Sequence record: NC_054918.1 | Source: Escherichia phage vB_EcoM_G4498 | Length of the DNA: 64,000 nt | Strand: one strand, 5' to 3' | In this document: piece by piece, positions 993 to 28,911 of the stretch | Numbering within the stretch: the first letter of the stretch is position 1 | Layout: every line of letters starts with the position of its first letter | The notes under the pieces: generated by a model | The model's database searches: none | Told to the model about the DNA's origin: nothing | The model's input: only the letters and a program-made list of their open reading frames with translations | Program-made: the position numbers and the translations under genes

Positions 993-2673
993 TCTTAGCT
1001 AAACTAAATCTACCAACTTTTTCCATCTGAATATGCTGACCATATTCTTGTGGGTCATGGTCTTTATGCGAAATTATGAAGAAGTTGGTATCCTTCAAAC
1101 CATCTAAAATTTTAGCTACATTTTTAATACCTTCAGCATCAAATGCACCGTCATATACTTCATCAAGAAATAAACAGCTTATTTTAACACCTGAAACTTT
1201 TTCAGCAATATCACGCCAAGTAAATAAAAGAGCAATATCAATTCGCGCTTTTTCACCTTGACTGAATGAAGCATAACTAAAATCTTCACGACCACGGGAT
1301 TTAATTGTCTCATTAAATTCTTCATCTAATGTAAACACATAATCCGCTTCCATTATTTTAAGATAATGGTTAATCTGCTTATTAAATAATGGAATGTACT
1401 TTTTAATAATAGCACCTTTAATACCAGAATCTTTGAGCATATCAGTCAAAATTCCTCGGTGGTATTTTTCCATTACTAAATTAGTTTTTGTCTTAACAAT
1501 TTTATCAAGTTCTTCTTGAAGCAGTGCTATTTCATCAGCATGGTCAATAAACTCAGAAGATGCTTTTTCTATAGCTGCTTTAACTTTTTTAGCTTTATCT
1601 ACTGTCGTGATTAGAGATTGCTTTTTATTGCGAATATCATTTGCCAACGACTGCTGGGTTTTAATATTATCTCGGTATTCATCAACAAGAACTTTTAAAT
1701 TATCACGATGTGTTGAAAGCTGTTCAAACGAATGCGTGCATTCAGAAACTTTATCTTTAATTTTAGAAACAACTTTATCACCGGAACTTAATTGCGACAA
1801 ACAGGTTGGACATAATCCACCTTCGTGATACATATTAATGACTTTATTATATGAGTCAATTTTTGATTTAATTAAAACTGCTTCTTGACCGATTTTATTA
1901 AATGCATCAGTCGGGTCTTCATCCAAAACAATATTAACTAATCTTTCATTAGCTTCTTCTATTTCCGATTTTAGCGTTCTAGCTTCTTTTGCCAAATCAT
2001 CGTACATATTTTGCAGACGAGTAAGATTGTCACCCGTTAATTTTTTCTGGCGTTCAACGTTATCATTATATATTTTAATTTGTTGGATAATACTATCTTT
2101 TTTAACATCAAGCACTTGGTTTTGTGAATTTAATTCACGTATTAGTGCTTTATTAAGCTTATCCATTTCAGCTAATGTTCCTACCTCAAGCAGGTCTTCC
2201 ACAAGCTTTCTTCGCGCAGGGGTCGACAAACCCATGAAAGGGGTATACCCTGCTGTACCAAGGACAACAATCTGCTTGAAACTGGCATATGACATTCCGA
2301 TAAGCTGTTCAAATTCTGCTTGGAAATCTTTACTGCTGGCAGATTCATTAAGACGTGTACCGTTAACGGTGATTTCGAAAACGTTTGGTTTTTGTCCTCT
2401 TTTGATATAGTACTTTTTCTCATCATATTCCATCCACAGTTCAACTAAAAGTTCTTTCTTATTTGTGCTGTTTATTAATTGACCTTTCTTTACATCACGA
2501 AATGGTTTGCCAAAAAGCCCAAATGTGATGGCTTCTAACATAGTAGACTTACCACCGCCATTTCGGCCAGTAATAAGAGTTTTTTGAACCTTATCTAGTT
2601 GAATGTCAATAGGATTTCCACCTACTGACATTATATTTTGATACCTAACTCGGTTTAGTTTAAAATTCTTCAC
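985..2673 (-). CDS. 46: gp46 recombination endonuclease subunit (Rad50/SbcC-like ATPase)
   Basis: 562 aa; Walker A GRNGGGKST; long central coiled coil; position next to 47. Confidence 0.9.
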   Translation of the reverse strand: MKNFKLNRVRYQNIMSVGGNPIDIQLDKVQKTLITGRNGGGKSTMLEAITFGLFGKPFRDVKKGQLINSTNKKELLVELWMEYDEKKYYIKRGQKPNVFEITVNGTRLNESASSKDFQAEFEQLIGMSYASFKQIVVLGTAGYTPFMGLSTPARRKLVEDLLEVGTLAEMDKLNKALIRELNSQNQVLDVKKDSIIQQIKIYNDNVERQKKLTGDNLTRLQNMYDDLAKEARTLKSEIEEANERLVNIVLDEDPTDAFNKIGQEAVLIKSKIDSYNKVINMYHEGGLCPTCLSQLSSGDKVVSKIKDKVSECTHSFEQLSTHRDNLKVLVDEYRDNIKTQQSLANDIRNKKQSLITTVDKAKKVKAAIEKASSEFIDHADEIALLQEELDKIVKTKTNLVMEKYHRGILTDMLKDSGIKGAIIKKYIPLFNKQINHYLKIMEADYVFTLDEEFNETIKSRGREDFSYASFSQGEKARIDIALLFTWRDIAEKVSGVKISCLFLDEVYDGAFDAEGIKNVAKILDGLKDTNFFIISHKDHDPQEYGQHIQMEKVGRFSLAKIS

Positions 2674-3116
2674 AAAAGATTCCTTTTAATGTATCTTTTA
2701 GACCATTCTATCATATCATCATAATCTAAAAAGTATTCATCAAATTCAGCCATGCAAACAACGCCTTGTGCTGTTTTTGATGTAATATAAATTATTCCAA
2801 CATATCTAGAATCTTCTTCGGTATAATCAATGTTTGCTATGAATTCATCATTAATGTCAAATGTCGAAAACTTCACAGTATGCATCCTTAATACAAGATA
2901 CAGCCATATCTCGTAATGATTTAGGTGTGTCATTATCTAAAATGTTGAAGTTAAAAGATACAGCCCAGTCAGTGCAGACTGTAACCTTTTTAATACAATT
3001 ATCTTCAACCTCTAACGGTTCAAACCAATATTCAATAATTTCTTTATGCCCAATATCATCTTTTACTTCGCATTCAAAATGCTGACTCATCATAACATTT
3101 TTAAATTCATCAAAAG

Positions 3117-26268: not shown

Positions 26269-26454
26269 TTAAAGCGTATTCACATAAGCTATTAATTCAT
26301 TTTCTTTCTTATCAAACCGATCAGCAAATTCTTCCTGCTGTTCGGGAGATAGCGGGCCGTATTCATCATAAAAGGTGTTTGCTTCTGTATGCTCATCTAG
26401 AAGTTCATGGATAAGCTCAAACAATTTATCTTTTTGTTCTTTGCTTAGACTCAC
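26269..26454 (-). CDS. hypothetical acidic protein (61 aa)
   Basis: ORF. Confidence 0.4.
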   Translation of the reverse strand: MSLSKEQKDKLFELIHELLDEHTEANTFYDEYGPLSPEQQEEFADRFDKKENELIAYVNTL

Positions 26455-26623
26455 AGTATGTCAATCCCCAAAAGTTTTAAAATGACTCGTTTCTGATTCA
26501 TAACCGCTACGATTGAATGACCGTTAGGGTCTTTTTGACCCGATCCAATTATAAATCCTTTTTGTGCAGAAAGTTCAATCAAAACATCAAGTTCACGTAA
26601 TAATTGATATTTTAAATCATCAT

Positions 26624-26851
26624 TCATTTTGGTTTACCTTCTTTAACGAAATCAGGATAAGGATAAAATCCCGAATAAAATCCTTCACCTTTATGATTGA
26701 TGCATCCTTTATTAGAACAATAGCACCAATAATCGAAATCACAAGCCATTTCATCATTACATAAAGCAAAAACAACAGGCCATTTACACTTTTCACAATG
26801 GGCATTTTTAAGAATACTAGTTTGGCTCATAACCATGTAACCTTTAAGCAA
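26624..26851 (-). CDS. small Cys-rich protein (75 aa)
   Basis: HCEKCKW...CNDEMACDFDYWCYCSNKGC. Confidence 0.4.
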   Translation of the reverse strand: MLKGYMVMSQTSILKNAHCEKCKWPVVFALCNDEMACDFDYWCYCSNKGCINHKGEGFYSGFYPYPDFVKEGKPK

Positions 26852-27054
26852 TATTCTTCTACGTGCTGTTTACGACCTTTCTTATCAATAAAGGTATATT
26901 CAACGAATGTTCCAATGTAGTCTTTATCTACATCATGTGGACTATTAATTGGACATTTAGTACGGCAAATGCGTTCCCATTGACGAATAATTACTGCTTT
27001 ATTCTTTGGGTCATATGGATGTGGATAATGTATATTCATAATAATGGTTCCCAA
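26827..27054 (-). CDS. hypothetical protein (75 aa)
   Basis: ORF. Confidence 0.4.
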   Translation of the reverse strand: MGTIIMNIHYPHPYDPKNKAVIIRQWERICRTKCPINSPHDVDKDYIGTFVEYTFIDKKGRKQHVEEYCLKVTWL

Positions 27055-27503
27055 TCAACAATCACAATTTCTAATTTAGAGGAATATGCATCTAAAATCC
27101 CCTCAATAATATCCCAGTTCCCTTTACCTATGCCTGCACCAATCCTAGGCATATAGATTGTAGGTTTAATCAGTTTATTTTCACCAAACTCATTTAATTC
27201 TAACATACAATTCATTAAAGCGGAATACTCAAAATTTGGCCCTGGTTGAAATTGAGTATAAAGGTTGAAGCAATACGCTTTATGAGTCCTAAAGTATTTT
27301 TCATAGACTGAGTAAGAACCGAGTTTAGTTACATCACCCCATTCAGTCTGTAATTTATCAGCTTCCAAAATTTTAGGGAAAGCTTTGGTTAATTGACCCG
27401 CTACGCCTGAACCCATAGTATGAAAACAATTACATCCATGCGCAATATTTTTACCTTCAGCGAAAAGGGCGACAATATCGCCCTTGATATATTTTACAAT
27501 CAT
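27036..27503 (-). CDS. macro-domain-like protein (putative ADP-ribose binding/processing)
   Basis: 155 aa; KGDIVAL...IAHGCNCFHTMGSGVAGQLTKAFP and PRIGAGIGKG resemble macro-domain motifs (VVNAAN...GGGVAGAI; G-I/V-Y/F-G). Confidence 0.5.
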   Translation of the reverse strand: MIVKYIKGDIVALFAEGKNIAHGCNCFHTMGSGVAGQLTKAFPKILEADKLQTEWGDVTKLGSYSVYEKYFRTHKAYCFNLYTQFQPGPNFEYSALMNCMLELNEFGENKLIKPTIYMPRIGAGIGKGNWDIIEGILDAYSSKLEIVIVDWEPLL

Positions 27504-27847
27504 CTAGTACTCAATCCTCGATTATAAGAATCTACCAAACGGTCAACCATTGAATGACAAGCGGCTTTATCTTTCTCCTCCGCAACTGAGCATTCTAAGG
27601 TATTCCACTTTTTAGCATATCGTTTTAATAATGTATCGTTTTTGTATCTGCTTGATTTATCTCTTTCTCCGTCTTTATATGCATATATTAATTTCTGTGC
27701 AAATTCAGCTTGGCATGCTTTATTTTTCCCACAATAATCTGCCGCAGTGCGGTTTACATATTCTCTAATTTCAGTATATGATGTATCTGCTGATGCAGAA
27801 GCAGAAAATGAAATTAATCCTATACATAAAACCAAAATTTTAGTCAT
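27500..27847 (-). CDS. small secreted protein (115 aa), in the position T4 assigns to vs
   Basis: N-terminal signal-peptide-like MTKILVLCIGLISFSASASA; several Cys. Confidence 0.45.
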   Translation of the reverse strand: MTKILVLCIGLISFSASASADTSYTEIREYVNRTAADYCGKNKACQAEFAQKLIYAYKDGERDKSSRYKNDTLLKRYAKKWNTLECSVAEEKDKAACHSMVDRLVDSYNRGLSTR

Positions 27848-28385
27848 TTACTATTTCCAAAAGTTTATTATTTTTAAGGTAATTAGCCTTTTCTAGGACT
27901 TCAGAAGCATATTTAGAACCTGCTTTAACATTCCATCCCGAATTATAAGAGGATATTGCTTTTCTTATATCGCCCTTATGTATATTTAACCAATAAGAAA
28001 GTTCAATGTACGCCCAGGAAGCTGAATTGGATCGTTTATTCAACATTCTTTTTATTTCAGCATCAGTCATATTATAACCAAGTTCCTTAACTCTCGCTCG
28101 CATAGTAGGCAAATAATTTTGGAACATTCCGTAGGCGTGATGCTTTGGTTTAGATTTTAAATTAACTCCGCCAGAGCTTTCTTGCCATAAAATGGCTGCC
28201 ATTATATGACCTAATCCGCTCTTGTGGATATTTTTGTGTGTTTTATATTTTCCATCCTTAGAAAATTGTTCCCCGAATTGATACGCGTAACGCATGTTAT
28301 CGAGTTGGACATTACTGAAAGTATGCTCGGAGCTATGTGCCATCATTGAAATGGCCAATAGACCAGCGAGTAGTGCTTTTCTCAT
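27840..28385 (-). CDS. secreted lytic-transglycosylase-like protein (SLT domain)
   Basis: signal peptide MRKALLAGLLAISMMAHS; SLT-like motifs QESSGG and AYGMFQ. Confidence 0.5.
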   Translation of the reverse strand: MRKALLAGLLAISMMAHSSEHTFSNVQLDNMRYAYQFGEQFSKDGKYKTHKNIHKSGLGHIMAAILWQESSGGVNLKSKPKHHAYGMFQNYLPTMRARVKELGYNMTDAEIKRMLNKRSNSASWAYIELSYWLNIHKGDIRKAISSYNSGWNVKAGSKYASEVLEKANYLKNNKLLEIVND

Positions 28386-28879: not shown

Positions 28880-28911
28880 AAATTATACCACAGTCAAGAG
28901 GAAAAGTAAAC
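28880..28911 (-). promoter_or_regulatory. T4-type early promoter (-35 GTTTAC, 18-nt spacer, -10 TATAAT)
   Basis: minus-strand GTTTACTTTTCCTCTTGACTGTGGTATAATTTTTC upstream of regB. Confidence 0.6.

Follow-up and report, generated by a model that had tools for sequence, protein, structure and literature searches.

Tk.4 (AdfM) of a T4-like Escherichia phage, a macrodomain predicted to remove thymidine-linked ADP-ribose without a catalytic lysine

DarTG systems stop phages via ADP-ribosylation of DNA, and phage-encoded ADP-ribose erasers, which decide which phages infect which strains, matter for phage host range and phage therapy. The catalytic residue of the DarG macrodomain is K80, equivalent to K84 of TARG1, and the K80A substitution eliminates activity as well as rescue. 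On its own, the DarG macrodomain is enough to rescue DarT toxicity, a precedent for a lone macrodomain sufficing. In addition, the macrodomain SCO6735 of Streptomyces coelicolor efficiently cleaves thymidine-linked ADP-ribose from DNA and protects against DarT; its Q85A and Q85E variants have no activity, and the mechanism proposed for it is water-mediated and lysine-independent (PMC9411070). Among phage proteins, gp104 of PhiKZ, a DarG2-like antitoxin of chimalliviruses that was independently named AdfM, removes T-ADP-ribose in vitro, protects the phage and is imported into the phage nucleus (Cell Rep 2026, PMC13309987). In T4, AdfN and AdfA act on the guanosine-linked ADP-ribose of DarT1 and give no protection against DarTG2. 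T4 lacking adfA and adfN remains DarTG2-resistant, which predicts a further factor.

In a genome-wide transposon screen (HIDEN-SEQ), tk.4 was the sole significant hit, the one T4 gene that the phage needed on a host with DarTG2, and a clean tk.4 knockout made T4 DarTG2-sensitive; the gene was renamed adfM, an anti-DarT factor that is a macrodomain (bioRxiv 10.1101/2025.11.20.689424). The authors noted the structural similarity of Tk.4 to M. tuberculosis DarG and said that an enzymatic release of ADP-ribose from the DNA “seems likely”; their T4 tk.4 genetics come from a preprint and one DarTG2 system (bioRxiv 10.1101/2025.11.20.689424). Our literature search turned up no biochemical assay performed on T4 Tk.4. 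An A1pp/macro match in tk.4 orthologues was reported already in 2006, the gene has been annotated as macro/A1pp since the T4 genome papers, and the protein has been the anti-DarTG2 factor AdfM since 2025. The macrodomain and the anti-DarTG2 role are already known, and the contribution here is a refinement rather than a discovery, concerning the lysine-less chemistry, the collision of two proteins under the name AdfM, and the two alleles of the gene.

The window analyzed here is the whole stretch of 64,000 nucleotides of Escherichia phage vB_EcoM_G4498 (NC_054918.1). The protein of interest is 154/155 identical (99.4%) to T4 Tk.4 (NP_049723) and of equal length, the sole substitution, A139 where T4 has T139, lying away from the conserved motifs. 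Identity to T4 is 99-100% for the genes tk, tk.3, vs, vs.1 and regB as well, and their order is that of T4, so that tk.4 lies between vs and tk.3 in the conserved series regB-vs.1-vs-tk.4-tk.3. As far as identity and gene order can tell, the ORF is the orthologue of T4 tk.4 and, for practical purposes, the same gene. Hundreds of Tequatrovirus (T4-like) genomes match a 3.7-kb region at 97-99% identity; in their records the ORF is variously labeled tk.4, “macro domain protein”, “phosphatase” or “Poa1p-like”, and the T4 reference record states “contains A1pp phosphatase motif”. A 2026 preprint on phage T2 calls tk.4 a “putative thymidine kinase”, a mislabel from the gene name; it also reports that the host sRNA ArcZ pairs with the tk.4 transcript and that Tk.4 protein is present in the infected-cell proteome. 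The features of the locus are listed in Table 1.

Table 1. Positions of tk.4, its motifs and surrounding features in the window, unless another sequence is named.
Feature	Position	Strand	Remarks
tk.4 / adfM CDS	27036..27503	minus	155 codons plus TGA stop; single macrodomain, no second domain (ORF list, sequence)
First ADP-ribose-binding loop, codons 22-36, H-G-C-N-C-F-H-T-M-G-S-G-V-A-G	27396..27440	minus	contains N25 and M-G-x-G33
Codon D49, family-invariant Asp	27357..27359	minus	72/72 and 79/79; Tyr in DarG, SCO6735 and BT1257
Codons Y82-T83-Q84	27252..27260	minus	Q84 at the catalytic Lys position (HMM and MAFFT alignments)
Second (diphosphate-binding) Gly-rich loop, codons 119-130, P-R-I-G-A-G-I-G-K-G-N-W	27114..27149	minus	alignment
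ATGA overlap, vs stop / tk.4 start	27500..27503	minus	minus-strand sequence ...GAGTACTAGATGATTG...
ATGA overlap, tk.4 stop / tk.3 start	27036..27039	minus	sequence ...CCATTATTATGAATATAC...
Best sigma-70-like match, TTTACT-17-TATAAT with TG	28882..28910	minus	consensus scan; directly upstream of regB
Vs, “valyl-tRNA synthetase modifier”	27500..27847	minus	MTKILVLCIGLISFSASASA...
Vs.1, SLT lytic transglycosylase domain	27840..28385	minus	MRKALLAGLLAISMMAHS...
Interval between tk and tk.3	26269..26851	minus	unlike T4
61-aa ORF	within 26269..26851	minus	52% identical to T4 Tk.2; Pfam DUF7438
58-aa ORF	within 26269..26851	minus	no T4 match in that region
75-aa Cys-rich ORF	26624..26851	minus	Pfam PF23895 “Phage zinc binding domain”, E 3e-29
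NUDIX protein, 151 aa	33508..33963	minus	adjoins the lysozyme gene, the T4 NudE position
Allele-variable segment, T4-type versus HY01-type tk.4	27020..27470	.	sliding DNA identity
HY01-type allele	2501..2980 of the phage HY01 locus (L003)		counterpart of window 27020..27470

The immediate neighbors of tk.4 in the window are vs and tk.3, with no darT-like gene adjoining it; the ORF on its 3' side encodes 70 aa, 100% identical to T4 Tk.3, with a match to Pfam DUF7202. The sigma-70-like match upstream of regB might mark the start of a regB-vs.1-vs-tk.4 transcript, and a scan of the minus strand from regB to tk.4 found no terminator-like site. The consensus scan yielded 19 promoter-like sites in the region versus 19.2 expected by chance; with such sites at chance level, the promoter/terminator scan was set aside as a timer of tk.4 expression. 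Co-transcription with regB, vs.1 and vs early in infection is plausible from the arrangement of the genes.

Several neighboring features are worth recording in their own right. Although both of its flanks are 99-100% identical to T4, the interval between tk and tk.3 differs from that of T4, which consists of tk.1 and tk.2. Phage HY01 has the Cys-rich ORF at 100% identity, and the matching T4 segment lacks it. Judged from these matches, the interval is a small mosaic replacement, mostly common to phage HY01. Both Vs and Vs.1 begin with a hydrophobic, signal-peptide-like N-terminus, which for Vs is odd in a supposed modifier of a cytoplasmic tRNA synthetase. T4 NudE has been reported to hydrolyze ADP-ribose (PMC9503650), and the NUDIX protein at the corresponding position could dispose of free ADP-ribose released by Tk.4.

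Tk.4 scores 27.7 bits with the Pfam Macro profile (PF01661) versus a gathering threshold of 22, covering profile positions 2-113 of 118. Its AF2 model has a pLDDT of 95.9 and displays the three-layer alpha/beta macro fold. The preliminary description of this DNA had called the 155-aa ORF macro-domain-like, and both the profile search and the structure prediction that it had pointed to found that similarity, the protein passing all profile and fold tests. Both Gly-rich ADP-ribose-binding loops are present (M30-G-x-G33 and P119-x-I-G-x-G124), and the segment PRIGAGIGKG, which had been noted in the sequence as resembling an ADP-ribose-binding motif, indeed falls within the second one. By structure as well as by profile, Tk.4 is nearer to the ALC1-like class, comprising TARG1, DarG, Poa1p and SCO6735, than to MacroD-type, viral or PARG-type macrodomains.

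The residue pattern of the pocket was derived from HMM and MAFFT alignments with true PDB sequences, using 72 family members from a protein/phage collection and 79 cellular relatives. Among the 72 members, the first loop has G23, N25, G33 and A35 invariant and H22, C24, C26 and M30 conserved to at least 90%; the second has P119, I121, G122 and G124 invariant and W130 conserved to at least 90%. All 79 cellular relatives keep H22, G23, N25 and G33, together with D49, N80, Y82, Q84, P119, G122, G124 and W130. The first loop aligns with H24-V25-C26-N27 of SCO6735 and with N22 of DarG, and substitution of this Asn impairs each protein in which it has been made, namely N22A in DarG, N23A in PhiKZ AdfM (PMC13309987) and N27S in SCO6735 (PMC9411070). 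The second loop aligns with residues 117-122 of DarG, where G119E reduces activity, and G126 aligns with D125 of TARG1. D49 is matched by Tyr, part of an “AY” motif, in DarG and BT1257. At the catalytic position, N80-L-Y-T-Q84 of Tk.4 aligns with N76-F-P-T-K80 of DarG and Y-L-I-T-K84 of TARG1, such that Q84 takes the place of DarG K80 and TARG1 K84 and coincides with Q85 of SCO6735. This Gln is invariant in 72/72 collection homologues and in 79/79 cellular homologues.

On the whole, the best explanation is that tk.4/adfM encodes a lysine-independent remover of the thymidine-linked ADP-ribose left by DarT2, a prediction to which we assign a probability of about 0.75. The stand-alone 155-aa macrodomain, whose gene is packed tightly with regB, vs.1, vs and tk.3, would be made early in infection. 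Upon infection of a cell with the toxin-antitoxin defense DarTG2, freed DarT2 ADP-ribosylates thymidines in single-stranded phage DNA and thereby blocks replication. Tk.4 would most likely bind the ADP-ribose via its two Gly-rich loops and hydrolyze the thymidine-ribose bond, restoring normal DNA and allowing replication to continue. The chemistry is expected to be SCO6735-like rather than DarG-like: because an invariant Q84 replaces the catalytic Lys, no lysyl intermediate would form during catalysis, and Gln84 and Asn25 would hold the distal ribose and a water molecule in place. The preliminary description had raised anti-defense against DarT-type DNA ADP-ribosyltransferases as one of two possible roles; this idea fits the published genetics of T4 tk.4 with DarTG2 (bioRxiv 10.1101/2025.11.20.689424) and is supported by them together with the near-identity of the window protein to T4 Tk.4. 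Weighing against the explanation are the missing catalytic Lys of DarG and Lys/Asp dyad of TARG1, the missing counterparts of K34, K89 and the longer mobile loop of SCO6735, the low scores on DarG models and the single difference from T4 at residue 139. Net charge was also considered, as an argument against DNA binding, given that Tk.4 has a pI of 5.9 (family median 5.8) and SCO6735, Taq DarG and TARG1 have values of 8.9-9.7. This argument was dropped because the pI is also low in the PhiKZ-type AdfM, a proven ADPr-DNA hydrolase (5.05), and in the Mtb DarG macrodomain (6.7).

The same pocket bears on whether hydrolysis is the main activity at all. Tk.4 might neutralize DarT2 mainly by binding and inhibiting the toxin as an antitoxin mimic, with hydrolysis secondary or absent, which we regard as unlikely. 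The catalytic Lys is indeed absent from Tk.4, the ICP1 phage factor AdfB acts through direct DarT binding, and the dead Q85A variant of SCO6735 continues to inhibit DarT in vitro, a stronger effect than that of mutants of DarG or TARG1 (PMC9411070). However, the DarG macrodomain alone carrying K80A fails to inhibit DarT, and the ADP-ribose loops as well as the Asn and Gln of Tk.4 are invariant in 72 + 79 homologues, both alleles included. Because the pocket is invariant to this extent, selection appears to act on catalysis or ligand binding and not on a toxin interface.

The labels carried by database entries would instead make the substrate a small ADP-ribose derivative, Tk.4 being either an ADP-ribose-1''-phosphate phosphatase, as is yeast Poa1p, or an O-acetyl-ADP-ribose deacetylase. 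We consider this even less likely than neutralization by binding. In the alignment, H22 and T29 of Tk.4 match H23 and S30, residues that have been probed in Poa1p structures, but where Tk.4 has Gln84, Poa1p has Ser. The labels “phosphatase” and “O-acetyl-ADP-ribose deacetylase” stem from domain names, not from assays, and the sole reported phenotype is specific to DarTG2. Moreover, to our knowledge, ADP-ribose-1''-phosphate is not produced by the RNA repair pathway of T4.

T-even phages also encode three ADP-ribosyltransferases, Alt, ModA and ModB, for which an eraser would be a logical partner, and the second role offered in the preliminary description was the regulation of such phage-driven ADP-ribosylation. 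That Tk.4 reverses or tunes their modification is nevertheless very improbable. Alt, ModA and ModB make arginine-linked ADP-ribose, a linkage on which no member of the TARG1/DarG/SCO6735 class is known to us to act. None of alt, modA and modB adjoins tk.4 at the locus. Macrodomains specific for arginine belong to another family (PMC10951314), and tk.4 reads in the transposon screen were reduced specifically with DarTG2 (bioRxiv 10.1101/2025.11.20.689424), leaving the regulatory role unsupported. CmdTAC, which acts by mRNA ADP-ribosylation, was rejected as a target: it defends robustly against wild-type T4, and because this phage carries tk.4, Tk.4 evidently does not neutralize CmdTAC.

The macrodomain of ALC1 (CHD1L), known as a binder and not as a hydrolase, also possesses Gln at the position equivalent to Q84, in keeping with a role of Tk.4 as a non-catalytic ADP-ribose reader. 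Such a role is hardly credible. In ALC1, the Asn (HCVD) and the G-x-G loop (RIGHATKG) are both gone; Tk.4 retains the Asn and the second G-x-G loop, as does the active SCO6735. Moreover, one would not expect replication to resume when the adduct that blocks it is simply bound.

Comparison with phage HY01, a member of the same genus, revealed that the tk.4 locus is dimorphic. Window and HY01 proteins share 58% identity for Tk.4, as against 95.7-99.5% for RegB, Vs.1, Vs and Tk; correspondingly, the sliding DNA identity to HY01 is 36-87% inside the allele-variable segment and 96-100% outside it. Tk.4 of Mosigvirus moha, from another genus, is 83% identical and diverges in step with its neighbors. 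The T4-type allele (at least 95% identity) is found in 219 phage records and the HY01-type allele in 276, and the invariant residues are all kept in both. From this pattern, the dimorphism looks like cassette exchange at the locus. An arms race between proteins would account for two diverged alleles more easily than a small substrate that never changes, which is a point in favor of toxin binding. With both forms of the locus present in natural phages, findings made on the T4 allele may not apply to HY01-type phages, which are roughly as numerous.

Relatives of Tk.4 also occur in cells. When one genome was scanned for each prokaryotic species, at least 527 loci proved to encode relatives of 35-43% identity; many of these loci lie on chromosomal contigs of megabase size from Alphaproteobacteria, Desulfobacterota, Cyanobacteria, Bacteroidota and others. 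All 79 that were analyzed are single-domain proteins of ~150 aa. Their 131 immediate neighbors are heterogeneous, the largest cluster (n=8) being a semialdehyde dehydrogenase of Desulfobacter-type genomes, upstream of which the Tk.4-type gene lies. No DarT family is among the 25 most frequent Pfam families of these neighbors (one gene on each side, crude ORF calling). A conserved DarT partner of the cellular homologues was therefore rejected, a rare one being possible, and the lack of a recurring DarT neighbor also speaks against toxin binding as the main function. The neighbors include NADAR (n=3) and NAMPT/NAPRTase (n=2) proteins, which may represent small NAD/ADP-ribose-processing clusters. 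One close “bacterial” homologue (P0073), from a Bacilli MAG (GCA_051648945.1), was rejected as such: its 44-kb contig JBOFGC010000414.1 encodes Rnl1, a Dda-like helicase, PNKP, a T4 spanin and a dCMP deaminase around the Tk.4 homologue and is a T4-like phage contig. Because this contig proved to be phage, some other “cellular” loci may likewise be phage or prophage.

These distributions invite a broader proposal, which we put forward tentatively and with some doubt. T4 AdfM would stem from an older, widespread family of Gln-type stand-alone macrodomains with lysine-independent chemistry, not from a captured DarG; the alleles would differ in target, and the cellular members would guard against thymidine ADP-ribosylation. 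The family has the signature H-G-C-N ... D49 ... N-x-Y-T-Q ... P-x-I-G-x-G, and its members number in the thousands among phages and at least in the hundreds among bacterial chromosomes. The alleles, exchanged among Tequatroviruses that are otherwise nearly identical, would be directed, for instance, at different DarT2 variants via a toxin-binding component, or at another defense that uses a nucleic-acid ADP-ribosyltransferase.

At the catalytic position, Tk.4 resembles the Gln-type stand-alone macrodomain SCO6735 (PDB 5e3b) and its close relative BT1257 (PDB 2fg1/2afc), which both read “N-M-I-G-Q” there and are ~25-29% identical to Tk.4. In the chain numbering of 5e3b, H24, V25, N27, K34 and Q85 of SCO6735 sit exactly at the published mutant positions. 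Tk.4 equals SCO6735 at H22/H24, N25/N27 and Q84/Q85, that is, in the H-x-C-N motif and the Gln. However, it is devoid of the DNA-binding lysines K34 and K89 of SCO6735; S32, which is Ala or Ser in the family, aligns with K34, and the loop following Q84 (F-Q-P-G-P-N) contains no Lys, whereas the mobile loop of SCO6735 is five residues longer. In addition, D49, Y82 and T83 are invariant in the Tk.4 family, but are replaced by Tyr, Ile and Gly in SCO6735 and BT1257. SCO6735 is also a cellular, DNA-damage-induced gene and not a phage gene. Altogether, the residue pattern puts Tk.4 in the lysine-less, SCO6735-like branch, not in the DarG-like one.

Compared to the DarG2 macrodomains of T. aquaticus (PDB 5m31/5m3e) and M. 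tuberculosis (PDB 5m3i), with ~20-23% identity, Tk.4 has Gln84 in place of K80, and its single domain is accompanied by neither the C-terminal DarT-binding domain nor the adjacent darT of DarG2. Likewise, the catalytic dyad K84/D125 of human TARG1/OARD1 corresponds to Q84/G126 in Tk.4. The NCBIfam DarG model (NF048014) gives Tk.4 30.4 bits versus an equivalog cut-off of 250, with profile positions 2-147 of 338 matched, and the PADLOC DarG model gives it 36 bits. SCO6735 reaches 28.6 bits on DarG models, about the same as Tk.4 (30-36). Further countermeasures of T4 against DarTG are AdfN (gene 30.3, NADAR) and AdfA (61.2), the folds of which are unrelated to that of Tk.4; AdfN is, like Tk.4, an orphan “antitoxin-like” glycohydrolase. 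Neither of their genes was seen in the part of the window that was examined.

PhiKZ AdfM, represented in our comparison by the orthologue from Pseudomonas phage U5, is like T4 Tk.4 a phage-encoded stand-alone macrodomain acting against DarTG2 under the same name. It is nevertheless of the Lys type, with N23/K78 and the motif “FPTK..W”, where Tk.4 reads “LYTQFQPG”, and the two share ~20% identity (pairwise E 0.005). The PhiKZ-type AdfM scores 131.5 bits with the PADLOC DarG model and 136 bits with the NCBIfam DarG model, compared to 36 and 30 bits for Tk.4. In view of these differences in DarG motif and scores, PhiKZ AdfM has the look of a captured DarG macrodomain, unlike Tk.4, and the two AdfM proteins represent, on sequence grounds, two distinct branches within the class. 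Among phage records, 291 encode DarG-like proteins and 2845 encode Tk.4-like ones. Because Tk.4 lies in the lysine-less, SCO6735-like branch, mechanistic expectations drawn from K80 of DarG or K78 of PhiKZ AdfM should not be transferred to T4 Tk.4.
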